Shown here piece by piece: positions 2,604 through 57,302 of a DNA stretch of 64,000 nucleotides (position 1 is the first letter of the stretch; the number at the start of each line of letters is the position of its first letter). The stretch comes from a virus. The DNA lies in the IMG/VR virus record IMGVR_UViG_3300010413_000015, positions 1 through 64,000 of that record. One strand, 5' to 3'. Position numbers and translations under genes: made by a program. The notes under the pieces are model-generated. The model saw nothing but the letters and a program-made list of their open reading frames with translations. It made no database searches and was not told where the DNA came from.

Positions 2604-3013
2604 TGCAAGTAGAAGAGATGGTGGCTGAAGTCAATGCGTTGCGTGGGGAGATTGCCCAACGCAATGCCATGAACCCCTATGCCTACACGCAAATCACCCA
2701 TGCCCGAGACCGTAGGCGACTGGCTCTACTGTGGGCCACAATCGCACCCGTCTTTCCTAGTGGTGAGTCAGGTCGGCAAGAGCGCCTGGAAGTGTTTTCC
2801 CTTCTGTTGGGCCGAAAGTTAGACACCTTCGTGACCAAGGACGGGGACCCATGCAGGAGCAATGGCCTGACCAATGGTGAGCTGCAGGGCATCCTTAACT
2901 GGCTGAATGGAGGGCGATTTGAAGCACTAAAGGTGCTCTCCTCGCTGCGCGATGCGTCAGATGCGTGGAAGCGGTACATTCCAGAACCAAATGTTGTGGA
3001 GGTGACGTGGTGA
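2603..3013 (+). CDS. hypothetical protein
   Basis: ORF coupled to upstream stop. Confidence 0.6.
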   Translation: MQVEEMVAEVNALRGEIAQRNAMNPYAYTQITHARDRRRLALLWATIAPVFPSGESGRQERLEVFSLLLGRKLDTFVTKDGDPCRSNGLTNGELQGILNWLNGGRFEALKVLSSLRDASDAWKRYIPEPNVVEVTW

Positions 3014-3381
3014 AGAACAAGCATGACCATAAACTGAGCGAGCGGTTGTACCACATGGCCGAGGGGGCTGGAGACACTCAGGCCACACTGCTCCTGATGG
3101 GCGCCGGAAAGCTGATTGAAGTCAGGAAAGATACTGAGTCTTCCCTGGTGCAAAATGCCACCCAGCATCTAGGGGTACTTGCCACCTTTGCATGTGCTTC
3201 TAACCCCGATTTCGTCCATGAGGTTGGTTATGAGTCTGTCTCCCTGGCCTACATGCTGTTACAGATGGACCTGGACTTTCTTAGGGGCCTACTGGGGTGC
3301 ATAGACGGCCTGCTTCTCGTAGCTGCCCTTCAGGAGGAAATGGCCAAAAACAAAGAGGCTGACGAGGACAAGGAATCATGA
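3010..3381 (+). CDS. hypothetical protein
   Basis: GTGA overlap, GGAGG upstream. Confidence 0.6.
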   Translation: MKNKHDHKLSERLYHMAEGAGDTQATLLLMGAGKLIEVRKDTESSLVQNATQHLGVLATFACASNPDFVHEVGYESVSLAYMLLQMDLDFLRGLLGCIDGLLLVAALQEEMAKNKEADEDKES

Positions 3382-4151
3382 AAGAAGCCGCAGATGGAGC
3401 AATGTGGCTGGCGAGAACCTGCTCCTCATGCACGAAAGCGCTGTGGGGCTGGCCCGACTACCACGCGGGCGGCAAGAAGCAAATGGGCATCTGCCTGGGC
3501 ATGTGTGACGGCCTGCCGCCCCCTCGTCCGGCCGAGCCCTACCCGGTTCAGGTGACGGATGGAAAACTCTATGGCTACTTGTATCGCAGGGTGAAGCTAC
3601 CCAACAACCGGCTGTTCAGGACATTCTGGATAGGGACACACAAGACTCTCTATGACGTTGCCAAGGGTGGGGAGCTTCTTACAAAGGCACGATACATGGC
3701 CCAGCTCAGTCTAGACCTGGAGAAATCGTTCAAGTACACAGAGGAGGTCCTAAAAACTGCCTGGGAACACTCGCAGGCAGATTGGGACAAAGCCTGCCAC
3801 GAAAAGGCAGCCTGGGAAGAACGGGCAAGGGAGAAGGGATGGAGTGGCAGATTCCACTCCACCCTGCTTGAGGAATCGTCATCTGTCAAGGAGGTCCAGG
3901 AGAAGCGACTGGCAGAGTTAAACGACTTCCTTGAGAACATCGACGCCATCCGGCTTCGGGTGACAACTGAGGCCTCGGAGTTCTACGATGCCTTCAAGCT
4001 CAATTATGACTGGTGGCAGGAGAACTGGCCCAAGTGCCGGACCTGCCATAGGGTCACTACGTGCAATCTGTACGAAGAGGCCAGCCGGCGTGAGACAGTG
4101 GCAAGAAGTGTGGCCAAGGGCGGTCACAGTCTGCACAAGGACAAATCGTGA
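3378..4151 (+). CDS. hypothetical protein with Cys clusters and coiled coil
   Basis: 257 aa, CxxC at both ends, ATGA overlap. Confidence 0.65.
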   Translation: MKEAADGAMWLARTCSSCTKALWGWPDYHAGGKKQMGICLGMCDGLPPPRPAEPYPVQVTDGKLYGYLYRRVKLPNNRLFRTFWIGTHKTLYDVAKGGELLTKARYMAQLSLDLEKSFKYTEEVLKTAWEHSQADWDKACHEKAAWEERAREKGWSGRFHSTLLEESSSVKEVQEKRLAELNDFLENIDAIRLRVTTEASEFYDAFKLNYDWWQENWPKCRTCHRVTTCNLYEEASRRETVARSVAKGGHSLHKDKS

Positions 4152-4375
4152 TGAAGGTAATCAAAACAGAAGACCCAGAAACGTCAGGCATTAGCATCTG
4201 TGACAACTGCGGAGAACGAAAGCCAGGGCGTCCAGTAGAAGGCAAAGATACGTTTACCATGACGAGCCGGGGTTGGTGGTTCCTATGCTACGACTGCTTT
4301 GGGCCTCGTGTGTTTTGGCGTGCAAGCTGGAATAGCACCAAGGTCTATGAATCGCCTGCCAAACAATATGTCTGA
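4148..4375 (+). CDS. small zinc-finger protein
   Basis: CDNC...CYDC; overlap-coupled start. Confidence 0.55.
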   Translation: MMKVIKTEDPETSGISICDNCGERKPGRPVEGKDTFTMTSRGWWFLCYDCFGPRVFWRASWNSTKVYESPAKQYV

Positions 4376-4438
4376 TATCATAGGACAACGTAGACAAAGG
4401 TGGTTTTAGCTGAATGAGCATGCGGGAAAGGAGCCAGC

Positions 4439-5248
4439 ATGGGGAAAGAGACAAGGATTGAGTACTGCGATTCTACCATCAATCCAGTGGTAGGTTGTCC
4501 GGGCTGTGAGTTGTTCAGCGAGGATGCAGAGAAGAACCACTGCTACGCCGCAACTTTGGTGAGAAGGTGGGCAGGCTGGACCGGCTGGCCAGAGACGTTC
4601 CTCAAGCCTGCAATGTTTCCGGGCAGGTTGGAGAAGGCCATCGCATGGCCAGACCTCAGGGGCCAACCCCGCCCGGATAAGCCGTGGCTTGACGGGAGGA
4701 GGCGGGTCATCTTCGTCAATGACTTGGGGGACGGCTTTAGTCCAGCGTCTCCGCATCCGGATAAGTGGCTGTTGCCAGAGATGCTTGCTATGCGGGGTAC
4801 TCCCCACGTCTGGCTGTTCCTGAGTAAGTGGCCAGTCCACATGATGCGCTTCTTCGAAAAGTATCCAATGCCCCACAGGGCATGGCTTGGCACAACCATT
4901 ACCGGGCAGAACACGATAAACAGGGTATTTCCCTTGCTGATGGACATTACCTCACTCCCTAACCGGTGGTTGAGCATCGAGCCACTTCTTGGGCCAGTGA
5001 CCCTACCTAAGGAGGCCAAGGGCAAAATTGGGTGGGTCGCAGCAGGTGGAGAATCTGGACACAACGCAAGGCCCACCCATCCTGATTGGGCAAGGTCACT
5101 CCGTGACCAGTGCGCAGACATGGAGATCCCCTTCTTCTGGAAGCAATGGGGAGAATGGCACCCCACTGATGGAAAGGTGGGCCAGGCCCTGTCGGGCAAG
5201 GCCATAGATGGAAAAGAGCATACAGAAATGTTCAAGGAGGCAAAATGA
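4439..5248 (+). CDS. phage Gp37/Gp68 (DUF5131) family protein
   Basis: TRIEYCDSTINPVVGC..C....CYA, IFVNDLGD, WLSIEPLLGP, WVAAGGESG, FFWKQWG. Confidence 0.92.
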   Translation: MGKETRIEYCDSTINPVVGCPGCELFSEDAEKNHCYAATLVRRWAGWTGWPETFLKPAMFPGRLEKAIAWPDLRGQPRPDKPWLDGRRRVIFVNDLGDGFSPASPHPDKWLLPEMLAMRGTPHVWLFLSKWPVHMMRFFEKYPMPHRAWLGTTITGQNTINRVFPLLMDITSLPNRWLSIEPLLGPVTLPKEAKGKIGWVAAGGESGHNARPTHPDWARSLRDQCADMEIPFFWKQWGEWHPTDGKVGQALSGKAIDGKEHTEMFKEAK

Positions 5249-5709
5249 GAGAGTGGAGCAGGACAACCGCTGGGCGCATTGTGATTCTGCTGGCAATCCT
5301 GGCCGTGATTGCCCTGGCCTTTGCAGTAGGTGCAAAGGTTGCCCAGCCCTACCATGGGAAGTACGCTGACACCATCATCTATGAGGTTGGCGGAACTCTC
5401 AAGACCGCGAAGCTATTCTGTTATCAGTCTGATTGCAAGTGGCTGATAACCTTCACGGTCAGTGATGTCGTCGTGCTTAAAGAGGGCCTGGGGATTCTGA
5501 ACGAGCCGGTGGTTGGCGCAGACTACACCGTAGATATACGGGACTCCAAGATGAACAACTACGTGGTTACTGCGTACACCGCCGTCACTGAAACCCCCAA
5601 TGTCAAGACCTACGACTACAAAATCTTGAACAAGAATATCCGGGTGGTATTGGCGGAGACCGTCGATACCTCAAGTGGATTGCCGGAGGTTGTGGGGGCA
5701 GTCCGTTAG
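5245..5709 (+). CDS. membrane-anchored/secreted hypothetical protein
   Basis: N-terminal hydrophobic helix; ATGA overlap. Confidence 0.65.
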   Translation: MREWSRTTAGRIVILLAILAVIALAFAVGAKVAQPYHGKYADTIIYEVGGTLKTAKLFCYQSDCKWLITFTVSDVVVLKEGLGILNEPVVGADYTVDIRDSKMNNYVVTAYTAVTETPNVKTYDYKILNKNIRVVLAETVDTSSGLPEVVGAVR

Positions 5710-5722
5710 ACAGGGAGGCAAC

Positions 5723-6424
5723 ATGCTTATTACGGATGAGGTGCTAGGCAACTTTGCTGCATGTAACGAGGCCAGAACCAAGTTCAGGACACGGTACCCA
5801 CTCGGAATTGACATTGGGGACCTGTGGGGAGAGTGGGAAGTTGCCAGCAAACTGTGGAGGAAACTCCTTGAAGACACCTTCCTGCGTGCCTACATACACT
5901 GGGCTATGCAGGCCGGCCTTCTACCAATTAGAGTCCGAGCCAACCTGAATGGCCTCAGCATGGCCCACGCCGACCTTCGACGGGCCAATATGTCCGGATT
6001 AAACATGGATAAGGTTAACCTAATTGCCGCCGCTCTTGGAGGAACGCTTCTGCATGACTCAAGTCTGAGGAATGCAAAGCTCGTCTGGGCCCAACTGTCT
6101 TACGCGAGGCTTATGGCTGCCGACCTGAGTGGGGCTAGCCTGCATGGGGCCAGCCTGGTCCATGCCGACCTGAGTGGGGTCAGTTTGAAGGGGGCCAGCC
6201 TGGTCCATGCCGACCTAAGCCATGCCGAGCTGTACACGGCCAACCTGAGTGGGGCGGACCTGACCGAGGCCAGGCTGTACGGGGCCAACCTGAATTGGGC
6301 CAACCTGGAGGGGGCTAACCTGGAAGGGGCTAACCTGGTCGGTGCCAACCTGCAGGGGGCCAGGACAGAGGGGGCCAAACTGAAGGGTATCATCCTTACT
6401 GGAGCGCAATCTTATGGGAAATGA
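5723..6424 (+). CDS. pentapeptide repeat protein
   Basis: Many A(N/D)LxG repeats; GGAGG RBS before ATG 5723. Confidence 0.92.
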
Positions 6425-6577
6425 ACAAGCGGTTCTGGTCACTGAGACAGTTTGTTGGCTGGGCCTTGCGCTTGGCCAGGTCATATCCGCAGCGCTAGGG
6501 ATAAGTGTGTCACTGCCTGGCGTTCTAGTCCTCCTGGTGTGGGGGGGATTCCTTTACTACAGAAAGGAGCGAGTAAG

Positions 6578-6778
6578 ATGAGCAAGTCGTGTCGGTGCCC
6601 CATGTGCAACGGAAAGAAGCGCCTGAAGGTGAAGACCAGCAAGGGGACTCACTCGGTGACATGTGGCACCTGCGGGGGCACTGGCTGGCAGCCTAGCGAG
6701 ACACAGACTTCTGTAAGCCCTCGTGGAGATGACGCTCGACGCCGGCAGAAGAAGCCGACAGATGGGTACGGGAGCTAG
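6578..6778 (+). CDS. small DnaJ-type zinc-finger protein
   Basis: CPMCNG...CGTCGGTG; AAGGAG RBS. Confidence 0.6.
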   Translation: MSKSCRCPMCNGKKRLKVKTSKGTHSVTCGTCGGTGWQPSETQTSVSPRGDDARRRQKKPTDGYGS

Positions 6779-6779
6779 C

Positions 6780-7115
6780 ATGGACGAGCGAGAGCGTACC
6801 ATCCTTGACTACTTCTTCGTCGGGCTGGGCATCATCATGGCCTTAGCCATAGTCGGGCTGCTGGTATCGTGTGCCGCCAGTCAGGAGGAGGTGCTGTCTG
6901 ATATGGATGGGTCTGGACTTGAGGGCGTGGCATGCAAGACCCTGAACCTGGTAGACGAGGGGGGTTACATCACGAAAGTTCTGCGATGTGTAGACCCCGT
7001 TGCTGGGACCCTCATCTACCTGTGGAACGGGTACGAGAAGGGGGGCCTTGGGGTCCTCTCACTGACAACATCGCTCCGGTGGCCTGCCCGGGACAAACTC
7101 TTGGAGGGGAAATGA
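6780..7115 (+). CDS. putative membrane protein/lipoprotein
   Basis: Hydrophobic segment ending LLVSC. Confidence 0.55.
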   Translation: MDERERTILDYFFVGLGIIMALAIVGLLVSCAASQEEVLSDMDGSGLEGVACKTLNLVDEGGYITKVLRCVDPVAGTLIYLWNGYEKGGLGVLSLTTSLRWPARDKLLEGK

Positions 7116-7426
7116 ATACAGGCAAGGCAAATACGAACGATATCCGCATTATCCACTACTGGCCCGGGCGAGCCTGGAAGGGGCACTGCCCTATTCCGGC
7201 GAACCTCGTGCGCGAAGCCGACCGCATGGGCAGCGAGCGACTGACCGTTGCGGTGCGCTCTGTTGTATCTCCCGGTGGCTACATGACCCTGGAGGCCGGC
7301 GCGGCGTACTGCCGGCATGGCGAGCAGAAGCGCCTCAGCGTGGACTTCGGGCGCAAGCTGGCAACAGCCCGGCTGCTGCGGGATAGCGAAGAGGTGGCAC
7401 GTCTGCTGAAATCTCTGGAGGAATAA
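7112..7426 (+). CDS. hypothetical protein
   Basis: ATGA overlap, GGAGG RBS. Confidence 0.55.
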   Translation: MNTGKANTNDIRIIHYWPGRAWKGHCPIPANLVREADRMGSERLTVAVRSVVSPGGYMTLEAGAAYCRHGEQKRLSVDFGRKLATARLLRDSEEVARLLKSLEE

Positions 7427-7427
7427 C

Positions 7428-7673
7428 ATGCCATTAGATGTTCACCCGACTGAGGCAATAGACAAGCTGACCCACTTGTGCTACACAGGGCGGTCTGTTG
7501 TCGAGGCCCTGGTCAGTGCTCTTGACAATATAACACCTACCTTCTGGGAAGAGCTTCTTTCCGATGAGCTTGTGCATAGGGTGAAAGATTACCTCCACAG
7601 CGTGGGTTCCGAGCACTATGCCCTTGAAGGGTGGGGGGATGAGCCGCCAGAGCCGACAATCAACTTGGGCTGA
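7428..7673 (+). CDS. hypothetical protein
   Basis: GGAGG RBS, 81 aa. Confidence 0.55.
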   Translation: MPLDVHPTEAIDKLTHLCYTGRSVVEALVSALDNITPTFWEELLSDELVHRVKDYLHSVGSEHYALEGWGDEPPEPTINLG

Positions 7674-8025: not shown

Positions 8026-8262
8026 ATGGGGCTCATCAAGAAACTGGCAGGGGAGTTCTTTATCAAGTCCTCAGGGGACTACGTGAGTGGCCTGCTTGCA
8101 ATCCTGGCAGGTGGCGAGGACTTGGCCCTTACCCCGGCGCAGGAACGAGAGCTGGAGAAGATGGGATACAAGGTGGATAAGTGGACCTCCATAGATGGGA
8201 GGGACGGCACCATTGTGTCCAAGGTATCCGCATCGTCATCAAACCGGGGCCTGTTCGGGTAG
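8026..8262 (+). CDS. hypothetical protein
   Basis: GGAGG RBS, 78 aa. Confidence 0.55.
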   Translation: MGLIKKLAGEFFIKSSGDYVSGLLAILAGGEDLALTPAQERELEKMGYKVDKWTSIDGRDGTIVSKVSASSSNRGLFG

Positions 8263-8267
8263 TACGA

Positions 8268-8346
8268 GGGGGAACGTGATAGGCGGACTCGCTGTGCCCA
8301 TGAGCACGACGAAAACATAATGGGTGGAAATCCCTACCCCCCACCA
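8268..8346 (+). ncRNA. non-canonical tRNA-like RNA, copy A1 (encoded CCA)
   Basis: GGGGG/CCCCC acceptor + ACCA end, CGTGATAGGCG D-like arm, 9-bp arm with 6-nt loop CCATGA, GGG-TGGAAAT-CCC T-like arm; paralog at 9039. Confidence 0.7.
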
Positions 8347-8349
8347 CAC

Positions 8350-8423
8350 AGGCCAGTAGCTCAATTTGGCAGAGCAACGGTCTCCAAAACCGTAGGTTGC
8401 GGGTTCAAGTCCTGCCTGGCCTG
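8350..8423 (+). tRNA. tRNA-Trp (CCA)
   Basis: AGGCCAG/CTGGCCT acceptor, TAGCTCAA..GG.AGAGC D arm, ACGGT-CTCCAAA-ACCGT anticodon arm, GGTTCAAGTCC T arm. Confidence 0.93.
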
Positions 8424-8460
8424 CTCTACAAATTTCAAACAGAAGCGGAGGGTACTTAGG

Positions 8461-9015
8461 ATGGGTTGTTTCGACGAGACCTGTGCGCTAACACGGGTAG
8501 CGATTCATTGGGGAGACCCGGTGGTTGTGGTCCGGTGGGCAGACCATACGAATCTCCTGAGGGGACAAACGTATACGCCACCACGGAGCACATACGAGCT
8601 TCTGAGGTTGCTGCACAAGGAGCCCAAAATACAAGACTGGGACCTTCCTCTGGAACAGCGGAGGATGGTGTTCTCGGAACGGGCACGAGAGGTACTTAGT
8701 CTGATAGCAGGGGAATACAATGACTACGGCTGGGTTGAAGGAGAGAAGCATCCAGATGTCGAGCGTATCCAGTGGTTCTTCGTGCACCAAGATGTGGTAG
8801 ACACCATTTGCGGCACCATGGGCATCGACACAAGTGGGGACCCGCTTGAAGTAATTCGGGCAATTGCTGACTTCGCCTTTGTTACCAGGACCCCTTTGTT
8901 CGTGCAAGACTGGCTGCTTGGCCAGCAGCACGGAAACCAGCACGAACGGAATGCACAACGCAACCTGATAAAGATAACGCTGTCCGTTCTCCAAGCCAAA
9001 GACGAAGAAGACTAA
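8461..9015 (+). CDS. hypothetical protein
   Basis: GGAGG RBS; begins MGCFDETCALT; 184 aa. Confidence 0.7.
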   Translation: MGCFDETCALTRVAIHWGDPVVVVRWADHTNLLRGQTYTPPRSTYELLRLLHKEPKIQDWDLPLEQRRMVFSERAREVLSLIAGEYNDYGWVEGEKHPDVERIQWFFVHQDVVDTICGTMGIDTSGDPLEVIRAIADFAFVTRTPLFVQDWLLGQQHGNQHERNAQRNLIKITLSVLQAKDEED

Positions 9016-9038
9016 AGTGTACACACATTGGGTAGGAA

Positions 9039-9119
9039 CCGGGAGCGTGATAGGCGCAACTCGGGGGAGTGAGTCCTCCACCGAAAGTCAGAATGGGTGA
9101 AAGTCCCTACCCCGGGCCA
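9039..9119 (+). ncRNA. non-canonical tRNA-like RNA, copy A2 (encoded CCA)
   Basis: CCGGG/CCCGG acceptor + GCCA end, CGTGATAGGCG, 9-bp arm with loop TGAGTC, GGG-TGAAAGT-CCC; covaries with A1. Confidence 0.7.
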
Positions 9120-9122
9120 CAT

Positions 9123-9234
9123 GCAGGTGCACAAGTTCTGTTCAAGGTCCGCTCAAGGAGATCCAAACCAGAATAGAAAGGTGTGCAGCATCCCGAGGAC
9201 GGTGTGCTAGGTGGTTCAAGTCCACCCACCTGCT
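9123..9234 (+). ncRNA. tRNA-like RNA B (canonical acceptor and T arm, atypical long interior)
   Basis: GCAGGTG/CACCTGC 7-bp stem and GGTGG-TTCAAGT-CCACC T arm enclose 80 nt lacking a standard D or anticodon arm. Confidence 0.6.
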
Positions 9235-9239
9235 ACTAC

Positions 9240-9264
9240 AGGTCAGTAGCTCAATCGGAAGGAG
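9240..9264 (+). pseudogene. 5' fragment of a tRNA-Trp-like gene
   Basis: AGGTCAGTAGCTCAATCGGAAGGAG matches the 5' end of the tRNA at 8350; no 3' half follows. Confidence 0.55.
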
Positions 9265-9270
9265 TTTGAA

Positions 9271-9495
9271 GTGTACACGCACATTAACTTTAAGACTAAG
9301 AAGGCCCTCAAGGCAGCAGTGGAAGCATATCTTAACGACCATGGGCCCGGCGTCACCATATTCCAGCCCGGGCCATTTGGCGGCAACGAGCCAAAAAATG
9401 GCATTGTCTATCTAGAGGGACCTCACTACCCAAAGCCGCACCGATGGTACGCTAAGGCCTGGGTAGAAGACGGGTTTGTTGTAAGAGTGCAGTGA
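9271..9495 (+). CDS. small hypothetical phage protein
   Basis: NFKTKKALK...LEGPHYPKPHRWYA; AAGGAG RBS. Confidence 0.7.
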   Translation: MYTHINFKTKKALKAAVEAYLNDHGPGVTIFQPGPFGGNEPKNGIVYLEGPHYPKPHRWYAKAWVEDGFVVRVQ

Positions 9496-9496
9496 A

Positions 9497-9509
9497 TTTC
9501 CGTCGGAAA
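9497..9509. repeat. dispersed palindrome copy 2
   Basis: TTTCCGTCGGAAA, intergenic, abutting the RBS of ORF 9523. Confidence 0.95.
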
Positions 9510-57182: not shown

Positions 57183-57302
57183 CCTCGCAGAGGGCACGCA
57201 TGCGCCTTAATTGCCATGCGTGTAATGCGCCAGCGCCAGTCCCAAGCCTGGGCACAGTACCCTTCAGAGGACAAGAGCCTCAGGGGTGCGGAAAGGGCCA
57301 CC

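Follow-up and report, generated by a model that had tools for sequence, protein, structure and literature searches.

Small stable RNAs whose function is unknown, such as species 1 and species 2 of T4, are a long-known component of phage tRNA clusters, and much current work concerns bacterial defences that target tRNAs and the tRNAs with which phages escape them. Here we describe two RNA elements of ~80 nt, copy 1 and copy 2 (coordinates in Table 1), in the first 64 kb of an uncultured phage record of 74,951 bp (positions 1 to 64,000 of IMG/VR record IMGVR_UViG_3300010413_000015; hereafter the window). Their identity as members of a tRNA-like RNA gene family is well supported. With moderate confidence, we read them further as paralogous genes of a rare phage family of non-decoding mimics of the top half of tRNA, which would be matured by the host and engage a conserved host machine.

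An initial annotation, made from the letters of the window alone, had drawn attention to two elements with a common core, a covarying 5-bp closing stem (P1), a central hairpin of nine positions and an encoded NCCA end, and had remarked that both elements encode CCA whereas the neighbouring tRNA-Trp gene does not; all of this is seen in the sequence. In the window the two-part core is present at exactly two places, and none of 100 shuffles contains it. The flanks of copies 1 and 2 are ~90% identical, and the inner 17 nt of the central arm are essentially unrelated, yet the arm takes the same folded shape in both. The same shape arising from unrelated sequence argues for a structured RNA and not for a recent, meaningless duplication. 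ARAGORN called neither copy and no other member of the family, picking up only tRNA-Trp beside the copies; the Rfam tRNA model stayed silent at E ≤ 10 over 8150-9350 and over four further members, and Rfam was otherwise empty over the elements even at this threshold, in line with the earlier suggestion of a structured tRNA-like family that standard tools do not recognise.

The family alignment rests on pattern-anchored searches. Strict two-block patterns (CGTGATAGGCG...AATGGGTG, then TGATAGG...AATGGGTG...CCCTAC) returned only chance coding matches in IMG/VR, and a first pattern scan of genome contigs returned 0 matches. On metagenomes of the Joint Genome Institute (JGI), a two-block pattern gave one true match, locus L039 (loci carry the prefix L), an AT-rich contig in which the same core is closed by an 8-bp P1 of unrelated sequence, with no CCA and no tRNA; a scan with a relaxed stem added L093. 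The 3′ block AATGGNTGNAANTCCCTAC alone matched 25 stretches in IMG/VR, 24 of which were new loci, and about a dozen distinct elements among them were clearly homologous. A scan of genome contigs added two contigs of metagenome-assembled genomes (MAGs), L131 and L135; seven of the nine genome-contig matches to the 20-nt 3′ motif scored just 18-29 bits and are treated as doubtful. The initial annotation had proposed a covariance-model search of viral metagenomes. Pattern scans and our model of the family (R1) together yielded 17 members besides the two window copies, in unrelated uncultured phages and the two MAG contigs; R1 collected 19 distinct members, with 42-75 bits for clear members and 29 bits for the weak L116.

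Such elements are rare: about 17 contigs in 2.9 million carry them. With only the 5′ block and AATGGNTG as anchor, a scan recovered known members and chance coding matches, with no altered 3′ motif; thus the last 11 nt of the 3′ block are truly near-invariant in IMG/VR. BLAST with a family member, a weak instrument for such RNA, gave no real match in GenBank phages, and 120 relatives of the MAG carrying L135 gave no further real match, an absence that marks the element as phage cargo and not as a bacterial housekeeping RNA. We found no published description of the family in full-text literature searches, although the supplement of a 2023 catalogue of 10,006 viral candidate RNAs (PMC10690425), which lay outside this search, could contain it. 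The members are rare, uncatalogued phage RNAs, and are not in Rfam. One of the doubtful genome-contig matches places the 20-nt T-loop block AATGGGTGTAAGTCCCTACC in L132 (2356-2409, minus strand), at the extreme 5′ end of a group II intron that is cut by the contig end and has Rfam matches to D1-D4 and domain V downstream; there it could be chance or a reused structural module.

From 5′ to 3′, the consensus consists of P1a (5-8 nt), A, GCGU-N2-4-AGGCG followed by Y-A, a central region, AAU-GGG-UGNAANU-CCC-UAC, and P1b. The D-like core CGU-N2-4-AGGCG is invariant in all 19 members. The central region measures 5 to about 100 nt and is usually a hairpin; its arm, of 0 to about 100 nt and with no conserved loop, is absent in L125 and predicted to be weak or absent in L135. 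Covariation resides in P1, where 98% of cells are paired, 6-8 pairs are changed on both sides, and up to five pair types occur per position. The P1 covariation score was reached by 0/500 column shuffles, and sliding the P1 partner by 1-3 columns lowers pairing to 40-59%. Members were selected on the two sequence blocks and not on P1 pairing, only the outer limit of P1 having been set by extending pairs, while part of the T-loop hairpin (P4) was preset by the search pattern. The covariation of the acceptor-like stem, first noticed between two copies, thus holds across 19 members.

Directly after P1, (N)CCA is found in 8/19 members, or 9/19 with L114, whose P1 has one mismatch, whereas ~0.6 would be expected by chance (binomial P ~5e-8). 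In the seven CCA-bearing members tabulated by eye, the base before P1 is U (four) or A (three), and the first base of P1 is G in six. A U or A before P1 and a G at its start agree with the preferences of bacterial RNase P. The invariant AAU and UAC that flank the T stem could stack as three non-Watson-Crick pairs.

Three phages carry the element in a tRNA slot, on the same strand as the tRNAs and with spacers of 3-6 nt; one is the window phage, where copy 1 lies 3 nt ahead of tRNA-Trp. L107 has the order tRNA-Gly-CCA, GAA, element ending UCCA, 30 nt, tRNA-Thr, and the L114 element comes after tRNA-Cys within a 22-tRNA array, where this tRNA and the element both end in UCCA followed by AATTTTGT. 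Between this family member and tRNA-Ile, L114 also contains a tRNA-shaped gene that ARAGORN missed (3895-3975, minus strand; acceptor GGATGGTT/AACCATCC, T arm GATGG-TTCAAAT-CCATC), the D arm of which is not obvious by eye. The initial annotation had reported a tRNA-type gene 3 nt after each copy. This is correct for copy 1, which is followed by tRNA-Trp, but the 124-nt tRNA-shaped RNA after copy 2 receives no tRNA call from ARAGORN or Rfam; nor is a downstream tRNA a defining trait, as most members have no tRNA nearby.

As a rule the element has the orientation of the upstream gene, and at five sites (copy 1, copy 2, L039, L093 and L111) it starts 4-24 nt past the stop codon; in L123 it overlaps the gene end. 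Neighbours are often replication or recombination genes (PD-(D/E)XK nuclease, gp32-like single-stranded-DNA-binding protein, endonuclease VII, RecT, 5′-3′ exonuclease), and in the window an AAA_24 gene lies near the elements. No gene is conserved beside the element within 4 kb in 14 loci. The carrier phages range from 34 to 60% GC and have essentially no proteins in common; genome-wide, no partner gene emerged, and BLAST clusters span at most 3 of 11 carrier genomes. The other phages checked have one copy each, and the window phage has two. Because neither proteins nor a neighbour gene are shared, the element would have a host partner, or the RNA would act alone.

We propose that these RNAs form a cloverleaf-like junction closed by a P1 that is free in sequence and always paired, with N-CCA after P1 in about half of the members. 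The D-like hairpin and the 3-bp T-loop hairpin, both near-invariant, presumably dock together like the tRNA elbow, and the arm at the anticodon position would be a mere spacer that can be absent. The RNA would be transcribed together with the upstream gene or tRNA array, and RNase P would cleave at the 5′ end of P1. In the window phage, the RNase P cut of the tRNA 3 nt downstream, together with exonuclease trimming, would expose the encoded CCA; CCA enzymes may take part in maturation of the family RNAs. The mature RNA of ~75-110 nt would then act in trans, as a competitor or decoy occupying a host machine that recognises the tRNA acceptor end and elbow, and its excision would, as a by-product, part the upstream mRNA from the following sequence. 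We infer the maturation route and the action in trans.

Two functions had been suggested by the initial annotation. Decoys for anticodon nucleases are unlikely because the central arm is dispensable: it has no conserved loop, its length runs from 0 to about 100 nt, and L125 lacks it; a decoy for factors acting on the acceptor end or elbow is possible. The second suggestion, a switchable precursor, drew on GGGTAG 5′ of each copy. The motif is present at both places, and in the leader of copy 1 it contains the TAG stop of the open reading frame 8026-8262, but its complementarity is not a family trait: among the 19 members it is found only in the two paralogues and one degenerate member. The alternative GGGTAG/CTACCC fold is energetically competitive in the precursor, and this pairing may matter locally, in the two paralogues.

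Several features of the family weigh against host-matured tRNA mimicry. P1 is 5 to 8 bp long depending on the member, which leaves the elbow at no fixed distance from the 3′ end; a strict ruler for RNase P or the CCA enzyme would call for one. The elbow is not a faithful copy of that of tRNA, since U55 and C56 of tRNA are missing from the T-loop and the D-like loop falls far short of a D-loop in size. About half of the members have neither CCA nor a nearby tRNA. The putative helices of the two small hairpins, P2 and P4, are invariant, so that covariation neither supports nor contradicts them. Finally, the ~30 near-invariant, non-tRNA nucleotides exceed what RNase P should need for recognition and resemble a catalytic or ligand-binding core. 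Across phages that share no protein, their conservation argues for either a universal host partner or an intrinsic activity.

The alternative that survives best, although we consider it unlikely, is a purely cis-acting processing signal in the manner of tRNA punctuation. The fold would do no more than recruit RNase P and 3′ enzymes that cut the operon transcript behind the upstream gene or between tRNAs, the excised RNA would have no job, and the upstream mRNA may be left with a stable cap at its 3′ end. The positions shortly past co-oriented stop codons at five sites, and the overlap in L123, are consistent with such a signal, as is the encoded CCA, which aids substrate binding by bacterial RNase P. 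RNA cutting between genes also appears to be a theme in these phages: the window phage carries a twister-P5 ribozyme, and phage L011, which shares the 74-aa gene located 3′ of copy 2, carries seven hammerhead type II ribozymes at equivalent positions between its genes. However, punctuation would be needed at many junctions, whereas the other phages have a single copy, and tRNA arrays need no extra cutting signal. In addition, RNase P accepts very diverse substrates, which does not account for ~30 nt kept near-invariant across phages of unrelated hosts.

It is improbable, in our view, that the tRNA-like ends are mere packaging and that the invariant ~30-nt junction is an active centre, either a new self-cleaving or other catalytic RNA or a protein-free sponge for a universal small molecule. 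If the sponge reading were true, the bound molecule might be, for example, a defence signalling nucleotide, and the RNA would be a single-copy counter-defence gene of diverse phages. We retain two specific forms of intrinsic activity because the ~30 non-tRNA nucleotides are almost invariant. The first, which we regard as quite improbable, is a self-cleaving ribozyme of a new class whose closing stem is variable, as in the hammerhead, twister, pistol and hatchet ribozymes that occur between phage genes. A small, strongly conserved core with a closing stem of free sequence and a dispensable peripheral hairpin would suit a ribozyme, as would the placement between phage genes and beside tRNAs, the known ribozymes in the window phage and a related one, and the lack of a conserved protein partner. 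Yet a ribozyme leaves unexplained the (N)CCA right after P1 in about half of the members and the trailer that the L114 element shares with a tRNA, and no Rfam ribozyme model (hammerhead, twister, twister-sister, pistol, hatchet, HDV, hairpin) matches over the elements even at E ≤ 10.

The other form, a stand-alone ligand-binding aptamer (an orphan riboswitch or a small-molecule RNA sponge), is very doubtful. The junction, with two hairpins that probably dock and about nine conserved junction nucleotides (A, UA, AAU, UAC), has the layout of purine-type aptamers. However, no consistent expression platform follows the element, which is succeeded by a tRNA, by a ribosome-binding site at 15-150 nt, or by nothing, and the CCA tails and tRNA-slot placement do not suit an aptamer. 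A faint match of the T-loop hairpin to the flavin mononucleotide (FMN) riboswitch has also been counted in favour, but it is at noise level; the FMN riboswitch itself was rejected, the partial match in L131 (15.1 bits, E = 10) being far under the cut-off of 66.2 and due to the shared T-loop hairpin.

Decayed tRNA pseudogenes or a meaningless local duplication are barely credible: duplication did occur here, as seen from the direct repeats and tRNA-Trp fragment of the copy 2 cassette, but 17 further, unrelated contigs contain the same core, and P1 shows compensatory changes among them, a chance origin of these matches is implausible at 42-75 bits, the central arms differ in sequence and keep their shape, and decay would not keep ~30 nt across phages at 34-60% GC.

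The family is a clean, testable case, combining a short RNA and ~30 near-invariant nucleotides with tRNA-style ends and no anticodon, and kept by phages that have no proteins in common and whose hosts differ widely in GC content. Candidate universal host partners are RNase P, the CCA-adding enzyme, the ribosome, an elongation factor, or a toxin that targets the acceptor end. Contact with a host machine and an intrinsic activity of the RNA would each make it a new functional class among phage non-coding RNAs, and would each add a new natural variant of the tRNA elbow. A covariance model of the family belongs in RNA databases, since genome annotators now miss its members.

Table 1. Coordinates of the two elements, their parts and other RNA features of the window.
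Feature	Position	Strand	Remarks
Leader of copy 1, GGGTAG + TACGA	8257..8267	+	Complementary to CTACCC at 8332-8337
Copy 1, whole element	8268..8346	+	63.9 bits vs family model R1
Copy 1 P1, 5′ strand (acceptor-like), GGGGG	8268..8272	+	Pairs with 8338-8342 CCCCC
Copy 1 junction A(A), D-like mini hairpin CGTGATAGGCG, junction GA	8273..8287	+	Core CGTGATAGGCG at 8275-8285, after AA
Copy 1 central arm, anticodon position	8289..8312	+	8 bp and C.A mismatch, in the order 3 bp, mismatch, 5 bp; 6-nt loop CCATGA
Copy 1 T-loop hairpin with conserved flanks, AATGGGTGGAAATCCCTAC	8319..8337	+	AAU-GGG-UGGAAAU-CCC-UAC
Copy 1 P1, 3′ strand, CCCCC + ACCA	8338..8346	+	ACCA at 8343-8346, followed by spacer CAC
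tRNA-Trp, anticodon CCA	8350..8424	+	3 nt 3′ of copy 1; ARAGORN; Rfam tRNA 67.9 bits; no CCA tail encoded
Leader of copy 2, GGGTAGGAA	9030..9038	+	Complementary to CCTACCC
Copy 2, whole element	9039..9119	+	67.5 bits vs family model R1
Copy 2 P1	9039-9043 and 9111-9115	+	CCGGG paired with CCCGG
Copy 2 D-like hairpin	9045-9057	+	Core at 9046-9056 identical to that of copy 1
Copy 2 central arm	9061-9084	+	4 bp, G.A mismatch, 4 bp; loop TGAGTC
Copy 2 T-loop hairpin block, AATGGGTGAAAGTCCCTAC	9092-9110	+	
Copy 2 tail, GCCA	9116-9119	+	Followed by spacer CAT
124-nt tRNA-shaped RNA	9123..9246	+	Perfect 7-bp acceptor GCAGGTG/CACCTGC; outside family
Twister type-P5 ribozyme	57186-57251		Rfam 57.3 bits, well above cut-off

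The surroundings of copy 2 bear on its likely history. The 124-nt RNA that follows it (fold z-score -2.9) carries GGTTCAAGTCC in its T arm, as in tRNA-Trp, and has a rearranged interior of ~85 nt between acceptor and T arm. Copy 2, this RNA and a truncated 5′ fragment of tRNA-Trp are held in a 254-bp cassette, bounded by an imperfect 24-nt direct repeat (79% identity; 9004-9027 and 9258-9281). The repeat spans the start codon region of gene 9271, and the first codons of this gene (GTG TAC AC. CA.) are duplicated 5′ of copy 2. At the 3′ end of the cassette, an 18-nt copy of the tRNA-Trp leader and 5′ end (9238-9255) runs into the ribosome-binding site of gene 9271. A unit of element plus tRNA-Trp was likely duplicated here and then remodelled; with 63.9 and 67.5 bits, copies 1 and 2 have kept the scores of full members.

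The host phage is very isolated, with most of its genes lacking a Pfam family. Its portal protein has two IMG/VR relatives at ~52% identity, both on 10-kb contigs, and the 184-aa protein encoded between copies 1 and 2 has no IMG/VR relative and only four distant protein matches. The 74-aa gene (9271-9495) is common across phages, but its synteny is not kept. Homologues of its product (MYTHINFKTKK...), which has no Pfam family, occur in at least 27 very different IMG/VR phages and always start near M-Y-T/V-x-x-N-F/Y. In L011, the seven hammerhead type II ribozymes (2663-7529) lie between small genes, and two of them directly flank the homologue of the 74-aa gene.

Rfam identified solely tRNA-Trp and the twister-P5 ribozyme in the window. 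Elsewhere in the genome, at 74720-74860 (L007 ~1440-1570) and outside the window, a tRNA-shaped gene has normal acceptor, D and T arms and a ~59-nt insert that splits the 5′ side of the anticodon stem; it scores merely 17.5 bits with the tRNA model, and a sigma-70-like promoter lies just 5′ of the gene. Four runs, each from a different study, gave contig pieces identical to window 8035-9500 (0 differences); their labels are soil, sludge, 'metagenome' and a coded organism, and marine sediment is the likely source sample. With 0 differences in these contigs, there is no population variation usable for covariation.

How, then, does the family compare with described RNAs? Like canonical tRNA (RF00005), it has a four-way cloverleaf layout, N-CCA after the closing stem, a hairpin with a 7-nt T-loop in which positions 1 and 5 are U and A, and GG in the hairpin at the D-arm position (invariant AGG); some members lie in tRNA arrays with tRNA-like spacers and trailers. 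In contrast to tRNA, the window copies have 6-nt loops (CCAUGA and UGAGUC) in place of a 7-nt anticodon loop, and the central arm is dispensable in the family. The T stem has three Watson-Crick pairs instead of five, the T-loop reads UGNAANU, which puts G at position 55 and leaves 56 variable, and the D-like loop has just 4-7 nt. One nucleotide, not two, separates the acceptor and D stems, and P1 is variable in length (5-8 bp). The transfer-messenger RNA (tmRNA) was rejected: ARAGORN made no tmRNA call, and the third P1 pair is G-C in both copies, not G3.U70.

Bacterial and phage Y RNAs (YrlA; PMC4201824) resemble the family in being non-coding, in some cases phage-encoded, non-decoding mimics of the D/T elbow. 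In YrlA, however, it is the two ends of the RNA that pair into the Ro-binding stem, and the tRNA-like module lies inside the molecule, with no free CCA end. YrlA genes adjoin rsr (encoding Ro), whereas the 14 family loci have no conserved neighbour, although no search was aimed at rsr. The Y RNA models in Rfam do not match the elements.

The self-cleaving ribozymes found between phage genes (hammerhead II, twister, pistol, hatchet and hepatitis delta virus (HDV)-like) share with the family the niche between co-oriented genes and beside tRNAs, a similar size, a variable closing stem and the lack of a known protein partner; they differ in that the CCA tails of the family find no explanation among them. 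By eye, the order of helices does not fit hammerhead types I-III or the nested pseudoknot of HDV-like ribozymes. It likewise misfits pistol (also when circularly permuted), the Alu domain of the signal recognition particle and the tRNA-like domain of tmRNA.

The T4 species 1 and 2 RNAs (rnaC and rnaD) are also non-decoding small RNAs among phage tRNA genes and, according to annotation, on the same strand. They are longer (119-139 nt) and have no sequence or structure relationship to the family: R1, with filters off, reached at best 8.2 bits (noise) on T4 68000-76000, with no match on the transcribed strand of rnaC and rnaD. To our knowledge, their function is likewise unknown.

The tRNA-like structures (TLS) of plant viruses, such as the tymovirus TLS-Val, gave no Rfam match on the elements. 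They are 3′ termini of RNA genomes, with a pseudoknotted acceptor arm and an anticodon-like arm used in charging, whereas the family element is an internal gene of a DNA phage with a plain helix as acceptor and no anticodon. Both, however, are tRNA mimics of viral origin that reproduce acceptor and elbow and can end in CCA, and the T-loop of plant-virus TLS is also of the UGNAANU type.

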